IMG/VR virus record: IMGVR_UViG_3300025540_000004
DNA: 31,527 nt
Reading direction: 5' to 3' (one strand)
Origin: a virus
How positions within the stretch are numbered: position 1 is the first letter of the stretch; the number at the start of each line of letters is the position of its first letter. Below are positions 1 through 31,527 of the stretch, piece after piece. The notes beneath the pieces are model-generated. The model saw nothing but the letters and a program-made list of their open reading frames with translations. It did not search any database and was not told the origin of the DNA. A program made the translations under genes and the position numbers.

Positions 1-127
1 ACCTTGCATGACAGCGATCGTCCAGCCCAAGCCTATTTCCACTGCCTATACGCTGGCCTCATTAAGGGCGTGCTTTAGCGTTTACCTATTCCGCCACTAC
101 CTCGTTTGCAACGTCATGGCAATGACC
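1..127. repeat. Terminal direct repeat, copy A. It is identical to 31401-31527 and is read as a circularisation or assembly overlap.
   Basis: I compared bases 1-127 with 31401-31527 by eye and they match exactly. Both copies sit at the extreme ends of the window. Confidence 0.9.
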
Positions 128-296
128 TGAATGGTTTTCCACGCCATTCGCATGTATTTCGGTGCGGCTCCCCGTTATACTGGATCGTGGCACGCTCTCG
201 CTCCGTTGATAAAAGACAGCTAGAGATTGACTTTTAAGCCAATCAACATGGCCAAGAGGGGGAATGTTAGGAAGGTGTCTTTACCTCATGACCATG

Positions 297-326
297 TTGA
301 CGGGCTCAAACCCGCCATGGTACAAT
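297..326 (+). promoter_or_regulatory. Plus-strand sigma-A-like promoter.
   Basis: The -35 is TTGACG (297-302). An 18-nt spacer follows. The extended -10 is TGgTACAAT (318-326). Confidence 0.5.
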
Positions 327-351
327 TTATTTGTTCAGAATTTGTTTACCT

Positions 352-390
352 GCGATAGTTGTTTGCCGACGACTATCGCTTTTGCTTTTT
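352..390 (+). terminator. Plus-strand intrinsic terminator.
   Basis: An 8-bp stem pairs gcgatagt (352-359) with actatcgc (372-379) around a 12-nt loop. It is followed by ttttgcttttt. On the minus strand no U-tract follows the stem. Confidence 0.55.
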
Positions 391-480
391 CTCTGCTTTT
401 GCTTCATCTCTCATTATTCTGTAGGATATTACCATTCCCACGGATACGACAGTCAGTAAATAAATGTCAGCAAAGTCCAT
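373..480 (-). CDS. Small hydrophobic peptide of 35 aa, MDFADIYLLTVVSVGMVISYRIMRDEAKAEKKQKR. It has a type I toxin-like architecture.
   Basis: The ATG is at 480-478, with GGGGG 7 nt upstream, and the stop TAG is at 375-373. The peptide has one predicted TM segment and a Lys-rich tail. It falls below the 60-aa cut-off of the ORF track. Confidence 0.4.
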   Translation of the reverse strand: MDFADIYLLTVVSVGMVISYRIMRDEAKAEKKQKR

Positions 481-482
481 AT

Positions 483-767
483 TCATGCCCCCAGTTCTTT
501 CATGATTTTTAAAGCCTGTTCGCAATCTGTTTTACTAATACGAATGTTCGTATTGACTGCTTTTGAATTTTTATAGACTTTAAAAATGATAAAATCTACT
601 TGTGTTATCAACATAAAAGTTATCCAGATGTCATTCTCACTAGCGATTTCAAGTTGCCATTTCACGTTGAAGGCTTCTACACTATCAATCTCGTCAATCT
701 CGTTTTTCACAATGTCTGCTGCTTCCTGACCGTAATTTTCTTTAAACTCTTCATAGTTAAATTCCAT
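483..767 (-). CDS. Acidic early protein of 94 aa from the ATG at 767. Function unknown.
   Basis: The ORF-track entry is 483..818. The internal ATG at 767 has the SD AGGGTGG 8 nt upstream and sits 2 nt after the stop of the upstream gene. Confidence 0.6.
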   Translation of the reverse strand: MEFNYEEFKENYGQEAADIVKNEIDEIDSVEAFNVKWQLEIASENDIWITFMLITQVDFIIFKVYKNSKAVNTNIRISKTDCEQALKIMKELGA

Positions 768-769
768 CT

Positions 770-1294
770 CTATATCCACCCTTTCGATTTCCAGTATGGT
801 TTCCGGTCTTTGATACACTTTTTTAGGCTTATTCCGTATTCGCTTGCCAATATTGCTTTTAGGTTTGCAATCGCTGTTTCGGCATCTAATAGCTCGTAAA
901 TAATTTCTCGGATTCTTTTCTTTTCCTCTTCGGATGTTTCATTCGGAGGTTTCAATAGCGATACTTCCTCGAGTATCTGAATAACTTCTCTGGTTTGTTG
1001 AATCGCGAACTCTTCTAACGCCAATCTGTGATGTTCAATCGCTTTGCCTTTTAAAACCGGTGCAGTATATCCTTCCGAGAACTCATAGAGCAATTCCATT
1101 GCGTACATTGGACTGTCATATGTAGTCAATGAAGCTTTTGCAATGTCCTTTTGCAACTTCCTATGGCCATGTTTTATGTTACTTATCAACTGAGGTGATA
1201 CGTTCAGATCCATGGCCAACTGAACTCCCTCAAGTCCTTCCTCCTTTTGCAGCGTTTCAATTGCTGAAGCTGCGTAAACTGAATCTTTTAGCAC
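770..1294 (-). CDS. HTH (XRE-like) early regulatory protein, 174 aa.
   Basis: The start is GTG at 1294, with the SD GGGGGAG upstream. An N-terminal helix-turn-helix-like segment reads GVQLAMDLNVSPQLISNIKHG. Confidence 0.7.
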   Translation of the reverse strand: MLKDSVYAASAIETLQKEEGLEGVQLAMDLNVSPQLISNIKHGHRKLQKDIAKASLTTYDSPMYAMELLYEFSEGYTAPVLKGKAIEHHRLALEEFAIQQTREVIQILEEVSLLKPPNETSEEEKKRIREIIYELLDAETAIANLKAILASEYGISLKKCIKDRKPYWKSKGWI

Positions 1295-1353
1295 GAACTC
1301 TCCCCCTTTTGCATATAGTCAATGGTTTTTATATGCACCTTTCGGATATAAAA

Positions 1354-1500
1354 TTAAGATAGTTTAACTTTACTCGGTTGATAGCTGCCGTTTTCAATGT
1401 TGCGCTTTGCTATCTTTATTAAATGTATTTGGGCGTCACGTTTAACTTTTTCAATCAAAGGGCCTGGCACAAATATAATTTCGCGTTTTGTTTGTTTCAT
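1354..1500 (-). CDS. Small hypothetical protein of 48 aa, MKQTKREIIF...
   Basis: The ATG at 1500-1498 overlaps the TGA of the Cro-like gene by 1 nt (TGATG). GGAGGT lies 7 nt upstream. Confidence 0.5.
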   Translation of the reverse strand: MKQTKREIIFVPGPLIEKVKRDAQIHLIKIAKRNIENGSYQPSKVKLS

Positions 1501-1751
1501 CAGCCAACCTCCTTTTTCTCATTTGAACTTGCATTATTTGCAAGTTTATTAAAAAAAAAATACTCGATGTGTTTGTTAAACATTTTTGCAATTATGTGGA
1601 TTTCATCAGCAGTAAACGGTTGTTTACCTGATTCCTTTCGGTGATAAGGATAAACACTGTTAAATCCAAGTTTTTTTGCCATTTCATCCTGTGATAGTTT
1701 TGATTGTTTACGAAGCATTTTAATTTTTTCAAGATCTACTGTAGATGTCAT
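1500..1751 (-). CDS. Cro-like XRE-family HTH regulator of 83 aa from the ATG at 1751.
   Basis: An HTH motif reads LSQDEMAKKLGFNSVYPYHRKESG. The SD GGGGTGA lies before the ATG at 1751. It is the first gene downstream of the consensus promoter at 1795-1823. Confidence 0.8.
   Translation of the reverse strand: MTSTVDLEKIKMLRKQSKLSQDEMAKKLGFNSVYPYHRKESGKQPFTADEIHIIAKMFNKHIEYFFFNKLANNASSNEKKEVG
1529..1543. promoter_or_regulatory. Distal operator-like palindrome TTGCA-N5-TGCAA.
   Basis: The sequence ttgcattatttgcaa shares both half-sites with the four sites in the switch region. It lies inside the 3' end of the Cro-like gene. Confidence 0.45.
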
Positions 1752-1767
1752 TTTGTCACCCCATTCC

Positions 1768-1782
1768 TTGCATTTCTTGCAA
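1768..1782. promoter_or_regulatory. Operator O1, TTGCAtttctTGCAA.
   Basis: Perfect 5+5 inverted half-sites with a 5-nt spacer. It lies just downstream of the -10 of the leftward promoter. Confidence 0.65.
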
Positions 1783-1794
1783 CTTCTTATATAG

Positions 1795-1823
1795 ATTATA
1801 ACTTGCATTTTGTGCAATGTCAA
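1795..1823 (-). promoter_or_regulatory. Leftward early (lytic) promoter.
   Basis: On the minus strand the -35 is TTGACA (1823-1818), the spacer is 17 nt and the -10 is TATAAT (1800-1795). Both hexamers match the consensus perfectly. Confidence 0.8.
1803..1817. promoter_or_regulatory. Operator O2, TTGCAttttgTGCAA.
   Basis: Perfect half-sites. It lies within the 17-nt spacer of the leftward promoter. Confidence 0.65.
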
Positions 1824-1831
1824 CTAAAAAA

Positions 1832-1846
1832 TTGCATTTTTTTCAA
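1832..1846. promoter_or_regulatory. Operator O3, TTGCAtttttTTCAA.
   Basis: One mismatch to the half-site consensus. Confidence 0.5.
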
Positions 1847-1851
1847 ATGTA

Positions 1852-1880
1852 ATTTGCTAAATTTGCAATTCTGATATATT
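1852..1880 (+). promoter_or_regulatory. Candidate rightward promoter for the repressor gene.
   Basis: The extended -10 is TGaTATATT (1872-1880). A weak -35, TTGCTA (1854-1859), sits at a short spacing. Confidence 0.4.
1854..1868. promoter_or_regulatory. Operator O4, TTGCTaaattTGCAA.
   Basis: One mismatch to the consensus. It overlaps the -35 region of the candidate repressor promoter. Confidence 0.5.
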
Positions 1881-1919
1881 AAATAAGAAAATATAAATAG
1901 TGAAAGTAGGTGAACAAAT

Positions 1920-2300
1920 TTGGAAGAGAATATTATTGGTAATAGAATAAAAAAATTGAGAAATAAAAGGGATTTAAAACAAGAAAAAGTAGCGAAAGAT
2001 TTATCAATAACTGTTTATCAACTTTCAAGATATGAAAATGGTATATCAAAACTAACACCAGAACTAATTGCTCAATTTGCTAAGTATTATAATGTAACTG
2101 GGGATTACTTACTCGGATTAAGTGATGATCCGCGTTTAACCGCGGACCAACAAATAGAAGTGAATAAAGAATTTAAAAAGTTAAAAGAAATGATTTCGGA
2201 ATTGCCGGATGGTCCAGAAAAATCGAAAGTTATACAGCGGATTCTGGACTATACAGCCGGTCTTGTCGATGGTAGTAAAGATCATAAACTTCACGAATAA
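1920..2300 (+). CDS. CI-like XRE-family repressor of 126 aa, with no S24 peptidase domain.
   Basis: The start is TTG, with the SD AGGTGA 7 nt upstream. The N-terminal HTH reads IGNRIKKLRNKRDLKQEKVAKDLSITVYQLSRYENG. It is divergent from the Cro-like gene. Confidence 0.85.
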   Translation: MEENIIGNRIKKLRNKRDLKQEKVAKDLSITVYQLSRYENGISKLTPELIAQFAKYYNVTGDYLLGLSDDPRLTADQQIEVNKEFKKLKEMISELPDGPEKSKVIQRILDYTAGLVDGSKDHKLHE

Positions 2301-2376
2301 TTAGTTCTGCTGACTTGTCTTTTTTTGAACTTATGATAACGTTTAAAAGTGCTTGTTCAAATTCTTTTTCATCCAT
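2230..2376 (-). CDS. Possible small ORF of 48 aa, antisense to the 3' end of the repressor gene.
   Basis: The ATG is at 2376-2374, with GGAGTG 6 nt upstream, and the stop TAA is at 2232-2230. It overlaps the repressor coding sequence by about 70 nt, so it may be spurious. Confidence 0.25.
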   Translation of the reverse strand: MDEKEFEQALLNVIISSKKDKSAELIIREVYDLYYHRQDRLYSPESAV

Positions 2377-2565
2377 GACTATCACTCCGATCTATTGGCT
2401 ATAGGCAAACGCTTGTTCTTGTTTATTATATTTATATATTACCATATATTTTTCGGAAATAAAGCCTTGTTTATAAATTTGACAAAATTTTATTGCGCGT
2501 TTTGATACAATTGAATGCAATTCAGTATTTTCTCATTATGTATACATATATAAGGGGTGTTAAAA

Positions 2566-3117
2566 ATGAGTGTTATTCTAATCTTTTTAGGAATTATTTT
2601 CCTCTTTGTATCGCTATTCAGAGCATTGATTTCAATTAAAAAGAAAGAGAAAAAAACAAGAACAGGATTTACATTTTTAATTCTTGGCGTTGTTTGCTCG
2701 GTTATTGGATTCACAATGTTGCTAAGCGATGACAATAATACAGAAAAAACAACATCAAATAAATCTCAAGATACAGAAGTAGCGAAAACTGAATTAAATA
2801 TTCCTGAATATACATTAAATGAAAATTATATTAAAGATGATCCAAACACATATTCGGGACGAACAGTTGTAGAGATAGAAATTAAAGGAACATTCAATTT
2901 AGAAGATAAAAAAATTAAAGACATCGCAACATCTATTTCAAATGAAGAATCAACAAAAGCTCTCAATAAATACCCTGATAGCGAAATGGTTAGAGTTGTA
3001 ATTTATCAGGAAGGAGAAGATATGTTTCCTCTCCTTAATGATACATTCAATGTCGAGGGCGGAAAATTGGTATTAAGCAAAAATACAGTTTCTCGTTTCC
3101 CTTTATTAGATAATTAG
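2566..3117 (+). CDS. Membrane-anchored protein with two N-terminal TM helices and an external domain. It is a lysogeny-module moron and a candidate superinfection-exclusion factor.
   Basis: The ATG at 2566 has the SD AAGGGG 8 nt upstream. Hydrophobic segments are VILIFLGIIFLFVSLF and FTFLILGVVCSVIGFTMLL. The gene lies between int and the repressor and is followed by its own terminator. Confidence 0.75.
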   Translation: MSVILIFLGIIFLFVSLFRALISIKKKEKKTRTGFTFLILGVVCSVIGFTMLLSDDNNTEKTTSNKSQDTEVAKTELNIPEYTLNENYIKDDPNTYSGRTVVEIEIKGTFNLEDKKIKDIATSISNEESTKALNKYPDSEMVRVVIYQEGEDMFPLLNDTFNVEGGKLVLSKNTVSRFPLLDN

Positions 3118-3322: not shown

Positions 3323-4831
3323 TTAGAATGTCTTGATCTCCAAACTATCCTTGTAAACAATAATTTCACGTACAATCATTCGTATCAATTCTTGTTTTTC
3401 CTCAAATGTTAATTCTTCTTGCCCTTTACTTAGGTAATAGTTAACTGCTTGTTGGTAAACTTGATGACTTAACATTTCATTATTAGATTTCTCTTTTACT
3501 ATCTCCAATTCCTTCAATCTTTTTCGTAAATTTTCTTCTTTCTCTTTCAATTCTTTTAATTCTTCTCGAATTTCATTTTCCGATATGTCAAAATCACTTG
3601 AAATTAAACGTAATAGTTTTTTCCTACCTGCCTGTATTTTTCCTATTTCATTTTGTATTCTTTCCATTTCTTCATCTTCAAATGATGTAGACTTCATCAG
3701 TTCTGTTTCACTTGCCGCAGCAATTTCAGCAGGGCTATTTAGCCAATTTTTTATACTGTCCCAAACATTGTTTTCGATTTCTTCTGCTTTTATTCTCATA
3801 CCACAACCTTTATTTTTTGCGCCTGCCGTATTTTTCTTATCGGTGTACATTCTTTCATATTTCCCCCAGTTTTTTGCATACACTCCAGGCATGGTATTTC
3901 CACATTCGCCACATCTTAATAAACCGCTTAATAAATATTGTTTTTTACCTTTTTTTGCCCATCTTCTCCGCGACTCTTTTAAAAGTTTTTGGGCGTAATA
4001 AAATGTTGTTTCATCTATTATTTGTGGGCAAGAAATTTCAATCCATTCTTCCCTCGGTCTTTCCTTCATTGGGATTTTTTCACCGGTTGGGAGTTGTTTA
4101 TTTTTTGCTTTTAGGTTTCCTTCTGTATCCCATCTATTGTGGTAAAAACGACCAATATATGCTTCGTTCATTAATATTTGCCTAACCACTTGACGATGCC
4201 AAACACTAGCATTACGTTTTGTAGGTATTTTCCGGTCAGTCAAATAAAAGGCAATTCCATTTATCCCTTGTACTCTACCGTTCGGTCTAGTAAATAAGTC
4301 GAATATTAATCTAACAACTTGTGCCTCGTTTTCATTGATTTCAAGTTGAGAAGTTTCCTTATTATATACGTAACCATATATCCTTGGATCTCTAACAATT
4401 TTTCCCTCTTTCGCCTTCCGTTTACGGCCATTTGACATCCGTTCAGTAATTTTTGCCTTTTCAAATTCTGCAATGGCTCCCCTCATTTGATAAAAAAGCA
4501 TACCTTCAGCAGTTTTCATGTATTCGCCATTAACAAAAACTAATTCTGCGTTTTTTTCAATTTCTTCCGTAATGATTAATTGGTTCATGAGCTTTCTCGA
4601 AAGACGGTCAGGATCATAACAGATTACTTTATCAATGATTCCACTTTTCACATCTTCTCTTAGTCTGTTTAAAGCTGGCCGATCTAAAAATTCCCCTGAG
4701 ATTCCATCATCAATATACTCTATTATATCTTCAGTACCAGCCTTACTCCGACATTGGTCTATTTGGTCCCGAATGCTGTATCCGTGCTTGGCTTGCTCCT
4801 CTGTCGATACCCTTACATATATCCCTATCAT
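3323..4831 (-). CDS. int: Large serine recombinase (integrase).
   Basis: The N-terminal resolvase-type catalytic motif reads IGIYVRVSTEEQ...GYSIRDQ. Recombinase and zinc-ribbon regions (CGECG...C) and a C-terminal coiled coil follow. The start is probably the ATG at 4831, with GGAGGG upstream. The ORF track extends it to 4912. Confidence 0.95.
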   Translation of the reverse strand: MIGIYVRVSTEEQAKHGYSIRDQIDQCRSKAGTEDIIEYIDDGISGEFLDRPALNRLREDVKSGIIDKVICYDPDRLSRKLMNQLIITEEIEKNAELVFVNGEYMKTAEGMLFYQMRGAIAEFEKAKITERMSNGRKRKAKEGKIVRDPRIYGYVYNKETSQLEINENEAQVVRLIFDLFTRPNGRVQGINGIAFYLTDRKIPTKRNASVWHRQVVRQILMNEAYIGRFYHNRWDTEGNLKAKNKQLPTGEKIPMKERPREEWIEISCPQIIDETTFYYAQKLLKESRRRWAKKGKKQYLLSGLLRCGECGNTMPGVYAKNWGKYERMYTDKKNTAGAKNKGCGMRIKAEEIENNVWDSIKNWLNSPAEIAAASETELMKSTSFEDEEMERIQNEIGKIQAGRKKLLRLISSDFDISENEIREELKELKEKEENLRKRLKELEIVKEKSNNEMLSHQVYQQAVNYYLSKGQEELTFEEKQELIRMIVREIIVYKDSLEIKTF

Positions 4832-5040
4832 TGAGGTGTTCCCTCCTATACTTTTCATATAGGTAATCATAACAAGCTTTTCTAATTTTGTCAGTAGAAT
4901 CTCCCTCGACAATTTTTACATGCACCTATGCATCACCTCAACAGATATATATGAGGTAACCGATTGTCCATATTTATTAAATTTTTAAGGGAATTTAAGA
5001 AGCTGATTGGAGAACGTAAGGAAATTTTTAAATGGGGATT

Positions 5041-5072: not shown

Positions 5073-6323
5073 TTATTTCACACGTAATTTTTGCCCAACC
5101 CGTATTAAGTTCGGGTTTTTAATACCATTCAAGGACACTAACTGATTAATCGTAGTGCCATATTTTTTAGCAATCTTGGTTAGATTATCACCGCTGACAA
5201 CTGAGTAATATTGTGGTGTTGATACTGTTCCAGCTATTTTTAAAACTTGGCCAACATATATACGGTTAACATTTTTAATATTGTTTAAGCTTGCTAGTTT
5301 GCTAACCGTAGTGTTATATTTTGCGGCAATACCGCTAAGTGTATCACCACGTTTGACTGTGTATGTCATGGCGGGTGTAGGTGTACTTTGTGTCGGCTGT
5401 ACACCGTCTTTGAGTTTGCTCAACAATGCCAAGTTTTGGGCAGCGGATCCGGTGTAATTAGAGATACCATATTGACTTGCCAATTGAGCCCTGGCATTAA
5501 AGGAACCATCTTTGCCAATTGACTTCAAATAGTCAACTAGAGATAGGCTCCCGATATGTTTTACTTCACCGACTGGTGTAGCACTTTCCACCCCATTAGT
5601 GGATGTATACTTACCCGCGAAATCGTCATTGACATCAAAAAAGCCATAATGTTCAAAACCACTGAATTTATAGGTTGACGACCATTGCCATGCACCTTTG
5701 CCGTTGGACCATTGAGGCTCTTGATAAATGGATGAGTAACGAGCCAACCAAGGTTTATTGATAATTAAACCTGTTGGATTAAGACTGGAGTTATAAAAAT
5801 ATGAACCGGAATAAATATCTACCCTTGGATAACCTAACTCCTGCATTTGCTTGATAAAAGCATTTGCATATTCAGTTAACTTTGTTTTATTTGTAATTCC
5901 CGAAGTGACTTCTAGGTCCAAAACTACATAACCATCAGTATCCTTGTTAAAGCCAACTTTTTGCAATGTCTTGTCAAACCATTTTGCTTCAGATTGTGCA
6001 TCAGCAACGCTTGTTAATCGGCCGAAATGGTATGCAGATGTAACAAGACCGGCTTGTTTTGCGTTTGCGATATTTACGCTTGCGGCGGGATCTAAATAAC
6101 TAGTACCCTCGGAAACTTTTACGACTACACCTTGGACTCCGCTCGCTTTAATCGTTTGATAAAAAGACAATGGTAATCCTTGTTCAGCGTTCCAGTGCGA
6201 CACGTCGATAAAATCTATGTCTGGTTGAGTTGCAAACGATGGAGCGACAAAAGAAAACGCCAGTACTGTAGATAGTACTAGCGCTGAAACAGTTTTATTT
6301 ATTTTACTCATCAGTAGAATCAT
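5073..6323 (-). CDS. Endolysin with an N-terminal signal peptide, a GH25 muramidase domain, a linker module and two LysM repeats.
   Basis: - The signal-like N-terminus is [27 protein letters not shown].
- The GH25-like motif is DVSHWN...[11 protein letters not shown]...AYHF.
- Two C-terminal LysM repeats read [16 protein letters not shown] and [16 protein letters not shown]. Confidence 0.9.
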
Positions 6324-31400: not shown

Positions 31401-31527
31401 ACCTTGCATGACAGCGATCGTCCAGCCCAAGCCTATTTCCACTGCCTATACGCTGGCCTCATTAAGGGCGTGCTTTAGCGTTTACCTATTCCGCCACTAC
31501 CTCGTTTGCAACGTCATGGCAATGACC
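31401..31527. repeat. Terminal direct repeat, copy B.
   Basis: Exact 127-nt match to bases 1-127. Confidence 0.9.

Follow-up and report, generated by a model that had tools for sequence, protein, structure and literature searches.

Within the viral DNA of IMG/VR record IMGVR_UViG_3300025540_000004 (31,527 nucleotides (nt), the whole stretch that was analysed and hereafter the window), a gene for a 35-amino-acid (aa) membrane peptide on the minus strand is met at its 3' end by a convergent plus-strand unit of promoter and intrinsic terminator, and a short cis-antisense RNA is very probably made there, because both signals are kept in all 36 informative loci of related phages and in five sequence versions, with the terminator constrained and better paired on the antisense strand. 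The peptide gene, read from the Cro-side promoter, is the final cistron of the block that opens the early lytic operon. Tentatively, and with a little less than even confidence, I read this geometry as silencing, in the manner of a type I antitoxin, of a membrane peptide with the potential to do harm, the whole being part of the lytic operon and not a free-standing cassette; its most likely role would be that of a switch keeping the peptide silent during phage dormancy. A first-pass annotation, made from the letters of the window, had proposed a type I toxin-antitoxin (TA)-like layout at this site, and of that proposal the convergent peptide gene and promoter-terminator unit has stood up as a conserved arrangement, whereas the peptide has turned out to be an operon member with no promoter of its own and no match to a toxin family. 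Since the geometry is like that of type I pairs, the peptide belongs to no recognised toxin family, the unit is not autonomous and its position is that of lambda oop, I have filed it as a cis-antisense control variant with both type I TA-like and OOP-like features.

The minus-strand open reading frame (ORF) at 480..373 encodes MDFADIYLLTVVSVGMVISYRIMRDEAKAEKKQKR, with a single transmembrane stretch and, after it, a tail that is charged and rich in Lys, and 7 nt before the ATG stands GGGGG (492-488, minus strand), as the first-pass annotation had described. This GGGGG is the Shine-Dalgarno sequence and lies within the last codons of a 94-aa gene; in relatives it reads GGGGG, GAGGG or GGAGG. The ORF is intact, at 34-35 aa, in 36/36 informative loci, and the 11 protein variants found among related phages are all 34-35 aa long, with the nine variants of the window group all at 35 aa. 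Synonymous change within this group is saturated in most pairs (proportion of synonymous differences, pS, 0.5-0.8), the proportion of non-synonymous differences (pN) is 0.09-0.28 and the ratio of non-synonymous to synonymous rates (dN/dS) is 0.06-0.22, while third codon positions hold 27 of the 53 variable columns and the other frames are closed. By these measures the 35-aa ORF is a real gene under purifying selection. Every version has one hydrophobic stretch and a charged tail, the best 17-aa hydropathy window scoring 1.8-2.6 across versions, and in this respect, as a hydrophobic membrane peptide of less than about 60 aa from a real gene, the product looks like a type I toxin. In locus L022 (related loci are given here by their L numbers) most of the 94-aa gene is deleted, yet the peptide unit is retained. 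An in-frame ATG two codons upstream (478-486, minus strand) overlaps the preceding stop as ATGA, so that a 37-aa form might be made by translational coupling; this upstream ATG is missing in L020, L022 and L035, which points to 35 aa as the common product.

The exact peptide was called on at least 12 public contigs, and pattern searches added further loci, some of the pattern matches among viral contigs being unrelated high-GC phages. The family is tiny, with three clusters among 5.8 billion proteins (the query being a 50-aa extended ORF) and two representatives in a profile search of 1.84 billion representatives. The tblastn search of the window peptide against GenBank phages gave no match, and among these phages the region resembles only that of Caldibacillus phage CBP1 (L037, MF595878), an isolated phage whose neighbouring gene is only ~68% identical. 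In CBP1 a diverged 35-codon, TTG-start membrane-peptide ORF, MLYAYIVLMFIFATVICIKDLIRTETEYQKAQKKR, was located by position, at ~1827-1934 (minus strand) in locus coordinates and in the same place as the window peptide, and its metagenomic relatives carry a 34-codon version, MFFYIYTFLMVVLTSYVSIKDLLETEKRHKKSDS. The GenBank record of CBP1 has no gene at this ORF, which overlaps the end of an annotated 104-aa gene. A literature search on CBP1 found nothing relevant.

The promoter facing the peptide gene is of the sigma-A type (297..326, plus strand), with TTGACG at 297-302, an 18-nt spacer at 303-320 and an extended -10, TGgTACAAT, at 318-326; it was at these positions that the first-pass annotation had placed it, and it matches the consensus at 10/12 positions with the TG in addition. 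It is the joint-best plus-strand match in bases 1-3000, the site at 2710-2739 also scoring 10/12 but without TG. From the hairpin to the next conserved element, relatives have five versions of the segment, 89-130 nt long and of unrelated sequence between the -10 and the hairpin, although the -35 box and the greater part of the spacer, lying inside two conserved helices (P1 and P2) of a structured RNA on the peptide strand, are common to four of them. Each of the five nevertheless has exactly one promoter of at least 10/12, on the antisense strand and pointed at the hairpin: TTGACG, spacer 18 and TACAAT with TG in V1 (this window); TTGACG, spacer 18 and TATAAT in V2 (L007); TTGACG, spacer 17 and TATAAT in V3 (L014); TTGACC, spacer 17 and TAAAAT with TG in V4 (L022); and TTGACG, spacer 17 and TAGAAT in V5 (CBP1). 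The -10 thus varies at its third base only (TAnAAT), the least important position of sigma-70 promoters, and 14-47 nt separate the -10 from the hairpin. Conservation in related phages, which had been suggested as a check on the first-pass annotation, is therefore borne out, with ORF, promoter and T-rich tail kept in 36/36 informative loci representing 19 configurations. When the segments were shuffled, a promoter of at least 10/12 appeared in only 0.1-4% of cases per segment, and the joint chance of finding one in all five versions is ~1e-9 if the versions are independent. On this evidence the antisense promoter is maintained by selection. It has no recognisable operator, in that a search for repressor-operator motifs or repeats common to the antisense promoter and the CI/Cro intergenic region found none beyond chance 9-11-mers, and the promoter should for this reason be active in lysogens.

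The terminator (352..390, plus strand), seen both by scan and by RNA fold, consists of a hairpin at 352-379 and a T-run, TTTTGCTTTTT, at 380-390. The hairpin and the ttttgcttttt behind it are where the first-pass annotation had put them, and only the stem needs correcting, from 8 pairs to 12 once G-U is allowed: 8 Watson-Crick pairs plus inner pairs including G-U, around a UGCC loop. As plus-strand RNA the hairpin folds at -18.6 kcal/mol (z = -5.6, 12 pairs), whereas the complement on the sense, or peptide, strand is weaker, with 8+2 pairs and -12.2 kcal/mol. The peptide stop codon, TAG (375-373), sits within the hairpin, and the 28 nt of the hairpin are 100% identical in all window-group loci while the synonymous sites of the adjacent ORF are saturated; the Arg codon CGA and the stop TAG, which form the outer stem, are invariant, and the other codons are saturated with synonymous change. 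The CBP1 hairpin differs in sequence, GCGGTAGCTCAGCTATCGC plus T7, and is again fully paired on the antisense strand through G-U, where the sense strand has an A-C mismatch at that position. An exact search for the hairpin in GTDB genomes gave no match, and there is no plus-strand gene upstream that would need a terminator.

The first-pass annotation had cautioned that the U-tract is also the coding sequence of the Lys-rich tail, such that one of the two readings could be incidental. Between L041/L046/L048 and CBP1 the peptide C-terminus is read in different frames (HKKSDS then stop, as against AQKKR then stop) and yet the nucleotides, GCACAAAAAAAGCGATAGCTGAGCTACCGC, are identical; A-rich DNA encodes a Lys-rich tail in either frame, and the identity of nucleotides across frames settles the caveat for the terminator. 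By this comparison selection acts on U-tract and hairpin as such, at the nucleotide level on the antisense strand. The same result bears on the plainest objection to the whole proposal, that a piece of AT-rich intergenic DNA looks like a promoter by accident and that the U-tract is the mere complement of Lys codons. Such an objection has some force for a single sequence, as promoters of at least 10/12 arise in 2-4% of shuffled 130-nt segments and Lys codons yield T-runs on the opposite strand, but all five versions keep the promoter 14-47 nt from the hairpin with the joint probability given above, and U-tract and hairpin nucleotides are conserved across a frameshift. Conservation and shuffles together effectively refute chance coincidence, which I consider very improbable.

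A different question is whether the hairpin works chiefly for the antisense RNA at all. It could act mainly in the sense mRNA or as DNA, whether as a 3' stabiliser, a processing site or a joint for module exchange, and the plus-strand RNA would then be a trans-acting small RNA (sRNA) or a by-product. Peptide types and leader types recombine freely on either side of the hairpin, which is the crossover point, and a hairpin that is 100% identical amid combinatorially shuffled flanks suggests a recombination joint; the antisense RNA has a leader with no conservation whatever, and an 11-nt leader match lies elsewhere in the early operon (1620-1630), though within chance expectation. I regard this alternative as unlikely, because the antisense strand is the better paired one in both hairpin sequence versions, because selection has held the promoter in five versions that vary only at the least important -10 base, and because trans-acting sRNAs normally retain a conserved seed whereas here the leader is the least conserved part. 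A bidirectional terminator or sense-strand attenuator was also considered and ruled out, given that a U-tract after the hairpin on the sense strand is absent in all versions; sense transcription must accordingly read through.

Returning to the antisense RNA, the product predicted for the window is ~57 nt long (333..390, plus strand, with the start at G333 placed from the -10 and the end from the terminator) and would consist of an 18-19-nt leader, the terminator hairpin and a U-tail; for relatives the prediction is ~35-78 nt. The window RNA is a perfect complement of the last 4-5 codons of the peptide, the stop codon and 40 nt of downstream mRNA, and the part of the duplex common to all versions is the stop codon and the last 3-5 codons only. 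At the level of sequence, then, there is an antisense RNA gene with its own promoter and terminator that is complementary to the peptide mRNA, as a TA pair would have. The free recombination of peptide and leader types implies that the leader need not co-evolve with the ORF, as expected of a cis-antisense RNA. Two loci speak to the partner of this RNA: in L022 two ORFs lie between the peptide and the structured RNA, and the antisense unit, with a new promoter sequence, stays by the peptide, while L033 (Caldifermentibacillus hisashii N-11) has the structured RNA present without the peptide and without the antisense promoter. Judged from these arrangements, the antisense unit belongs to the peptide and not to the downstream elements.

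The operon in which the peptide sits sets the terms for the most serious rival. Transcription would start at the early lytic promoter, TTGACA-17-TATAAT (1823-1795, minus strand), a 12/12 match found by promoter scan upstream of the Cro-like gene, and the first block then runs in the order Cro-like XRE gene (within 1500-1823, minus strand), 48-aa gene (1354-1500, minus strand), 174-aa regulator (phrog_1124; 770-1294, minus strand), 94-aa gene (483-767, minus strand) and 35-aa peptide gene (373-480, minus strand). The TGA stop of the 94-aa gene lies 2 nt before the peptide ATG, so the peptide ORF is not free-standing and belongs to the operon. By promoter scan 1795-1823 is the only strong promoter ahead of the peptide on the minus strand, where no site resembling a promoter or a terminator was found between the two, and none of the five versions has a sense-strand promoter-like site within 400 nt upstream of the hairpin. 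After the peptide come ~430 nt of non-coding sequence that wrap around the contig join, and then a 108-aa gene and the YqaJ/RecT recombination genes.

This is the position of lambda oop over cII, and it is what makes an OOP-like role a serious rival. The antisense RNA would then be real and would control the polycistronic early transcript at the junction between regulatory and recombination-replication genes, by cleavage or decay, or it would tune a regulatory or host-takeover peptide, with no toxin and no TA logic. The order of elements fits well (an opposed repressor gene, then the Cro-like gene, regulators, a last small gene, a convergent short RNA and the YqaJ/RecT and replication genes), the peptide is embedded in the operon and never found elsewhere, most of the duplex is in intercistronic mRNA and not in the ORF, and the next elements downstream are a long hairpin of RNase III type and further structures of the processing kind. 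OOP overlaps 52 nt of the 3' end of cII, stops at its own terminator and acts via RNase III (PMC5869508 and the papers of Krinke & Wulff that it cites). The likeness is that of a short RNA with its own promoter and terminator that runs against an early lytic operon and overlaps, at the 3' end, the gene closing the regulatory block, just ahead of the replication and recombination genes. The differences are that the overlapped gene here is a membrane peptide and not a cII-type transcription factor, that the coding overlap is ~15 nt as against the 52 nt of OOP, that there is no sequence similarity and no Rfam match in the region, and that the host is Gram-positive and thermophilic. Moreover, in L022, where the downstream context is altered, the antisense unit goes with the peptide and not with the downstream RNA or genes, the duplex shared by the five versions covers only the stop and last codons of the peptide, and the peptide has classic type I toxin architecture. 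I therefore take OOP-like control to be possible but the less probable of the two.

Type I antitoxin-style silencing, the preferred reading, draws on several characterised systems. The peptide and its partner resemble the Bacillus subtilis pairs txpA/RatA, bsrG/SR4 and yonT/SR6 in combining a small, charged-tail membrane peptide on a prophage or phage with a convergent antisense RNA that runs from a sigma-A promoter of its own to its own terminator and overlaps the peptide mRNA at the 3' end. These 3'-overlap type I pairs of B. subtilis depend on RNase III. They differ from the unit described here in having no sequence homology to the peptide in family scans, and in that the peptide here is without a promoter of its own and inside an early lytic operon, the antisense RNA is predicted at 35-78 nt instead of 100-220 nt, and the coding overlap is ~15 nt. 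The par locus of the Enterococcus plasmid pAD1 encodes Fst, of 33 aa with a hydrophobic N-terminus and a charged tail, and a convergent antitoxin, RNA II, of ~65 nt, the two transcripts sharing one terminator hairpin. The pairing of a small charged-tail peptide with a short convergent antisense RNA is thus common to both, but the hairpin here terminates the antisense strand only, with no U-tract on the sense strand and transcription continuing downstream, and the 5' direct repeats for interaction are absent; nor did the peptide match the Pfam family Fst_toxin. Phage-borne type I toxins of Clostridioides difficile have 30-56 aa, some of them 34-35, with a hydrophobic N-terminus and a Lys-rich tail (PMC6563280), and examples are CD0904.1 (35 aa) and CD0956.3 (34 aa), which have convergent antitoxin RNAs (PMC6563280). 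Length, hydrophobic N-terminus, Lys-rich C-terminus, phage carriage and a convergent antisense partner are all shared with the present peptide; family scans detected no relationship, the sequences not having been compared directly. Those modules, in contrast, are separate units credited with prophage stabilisation, whereas here the peptide is an operon member in a phage of a different bacterial order.

A number of observations weigh against reading the peptide as a type I toxin, and they should be set out together. No profile match was found to the Fst/Ldr, TxpA/BsrG, YonT, Hok, TisB, Ibs and other type I toxin families, and Pfam, NCBIfam, PADLOC and PHROGs searched at E <= 10 gave no toxin family for the peptide, bar two unrelated weak matches. 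The strand scan of the window and the five versions gave the peptide no promoter of its own, and the peptide occupies the same operon slot at all loci, unlike mobile TA cassettes. Phage early regions commonly encode small membrane peptides, the majority of which are not toxins. The coding overlap is only ~15 nt, the CBP1 RNA, predicted at ~35 nt, is shorter than any characterised antitoxin RNA known to me, and use as a recombination joint could in part account for a hairpin so perfectly conserved. The autonomous two-gene unit of a classical TA system, in which the toxin has its own promoter and occurs in varied contexts, is thus not what is found here; autonomy is not strictly defining, since yonT too is part of a polycistronic mRNA, and SR6, an RNA of 100 nt, overlaps it at the 3' end (PMC5848175). 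Strict toxin-antitoxin status is, in sum, only partly supported, and toxicity is a prediction from the sequence.

How silencing might work can be sketched from these parts. In a lysogen, where the early promoter is repressed, the antisense RNA would be in excess and would pair with leaky early transcripts; the duplex would be cut, as it is by RNase III in the Bacillus type I systems and in lambda oop/cII, and the cut would take away the stop codon and the 3' end, such that the peptide would not be made. Upon induction, the strong 12/12 early promoter would outproduce the antisense RNA, and might also interfere with the antisense promoter, and the peptide would be expressed. Transcription, pairing, cleavage, harmfulness of the peptide and threshold behaviour are all inferred.

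The genes of the wider genome were identified by family scans. Bases 1-127 are exactly those of 31401-31527, a 127-bp terminal direct repeat representing assembler overlap, so that the window is a complete circular phage genome of 31.4 kb, and the join of the circle falls inside the structured RNA. Almost all genes are on the minus strand. The CI-like XRE repressor (1920-2300) is on the plus strand, and beside it lies a plus-strand membrane protein (2557-3117) that is possibly, on a weak match, a superinfection-exclusion protein; a large serine integrase (3323-4912, minus strand) and an endolysin (5073-6323, minus strand) follow by family scan, the integrase gene lying directly after that of the endolysin and beside the immunity region. 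The host is probably Caldifermentibacillus or Caldibacillus, and bioreactor metagenomes are the source of the relatives' samples where record names are informative. An earlier idea, that bases 1-260 (GC-rich and without an ORF) were host DNA at a prophage end, or an attachment (att) site with the displaced 3' end of a tRNA or transfer-messenger RNA (tmRNA), was dropped, as the genome is circular, has a serine integrase and carries in its GC-rich stretch a phage-borne structured RNA.

That structured RNA may be a more novel object than the peptide/antisense unit. It is modular, ~430 nt long and on the peptide strand, covering window 1-316 (minus strand) and continuing at 31400-31365 (minus strand). 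RNAalifold on 13 distinct sequences gives -53.0 kcal/mol for the sense strand vs -34.7 for the antisense, 13/13 sequences fold better on the sense strand, and the alignment has 72 G-U cells vs 2 A-C cells, with seven pairs showing double changes and with compensatory changes in L018/L019 and CBP1. The idea of a structured RNA on the plus strand, ending at the terminator, was rejected on these counts and energies, which favour the minus strand. The consensus fold, all on the minus strand, comprises a P1 helix (299-316), a P2 hairpin of ~27 bp that resembles an RNase III site (234-309), P3 after P2, and a conserved domain (~109-208); the stems of a tRNA-like end follow, from 103 to 1 and then from 31400 to 31378 (minus strand). 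In this end an acceptor stem of 7 bp (GAGGTAG/CTACCTC) is joined by a D arm and by a T arm whose loop reads UGCAAAU, and the stems covary in L048 (GGGGTAG/CTACCCC and GCAGGG/CCCTGC); the anticodon position is replaced by ~70 nt of which there are at least five unrelated versions, and a 3' ACCA is encoded in L011 and L033. Neither the window nor any of 15 loci gave a tRNA or tmRNA with ARAGORN, which rejected all versions of the tRNA-like module. For antisense RNA and structured RNA alike, Rfam gave nothing at the gathering threshold or at E <= 10 in the window and five related loci; the sole Rfam match is that of the 3' module of L036, which scores as tRNA (RF00005, 46.4 bits). A motif search with P1/P2 gave one true match (Caldifermentibacillus hisashii) and one false one.

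The modules of this RNA are shuffled or missing in L002, L014, L015, L036 and CBP1. The conserved RNA domain ends with a marker 19-mer, GGTCATTGCCATGACGTTG, of which L018 has two copies (1943-1961 and 2331-2349), 388 nt apart at a module boundary, and this suggests that the 19-mer acts as a recombination joint between phage modules. The -35 and spacer of the antisense promoter lie inside P1/P2, so that in the window the two features are physically interleaved, while L022 and L033 show antisense unit and structured RNA to be separable. In both of these loci P1 is not beside the peptide unit, and a T-run, GACGGGCTCAAACCCGTCTTTTTTT, follows P1 on the antisense strand, terminator-like but with no obvious transcript to terminate. 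A more far-reaching proposal, and one I would offer as an outside speculation, is that in thermophilic Bacillaceae phages the peptide/antisense unit forms the opening part of an RNA cassette of the early operon that has not been described before. On this view the duplex would set the 5' end of the large modular same-strand RNA, the tRNA-like RNA, once released, could serve as an exchangeable decoy or guide (e.g., against host tRNA-targeting defences, or for priming or processing), and the peptide, together with the antisense RNA, would act as the gate on its production as between lysogeny and lytic growth.

If the action proposed for the antisense RNA is right, phages of Gram-positive thermophiles would have an equivalent of OOP or of a type I antitoxin that is hard-wired into the lytic operon, and a temperate phage would need only an RNA of ~35-78 nt, which would be among the smallest antisense regulators proposed, to filter out leaky early transcripts of a membrane-active peptide. 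The five leader versions, all with one logic, are a natural experiment on which parts of a cis-antisense RNA matter, and CBP1 together with Caldibacillus debilis GB1 is an isolated phage-host pair that makes the system testable. The same region points to an uncatalogued large, tRNA-like structured RNA, absent from Rfam and shuffled between phages.

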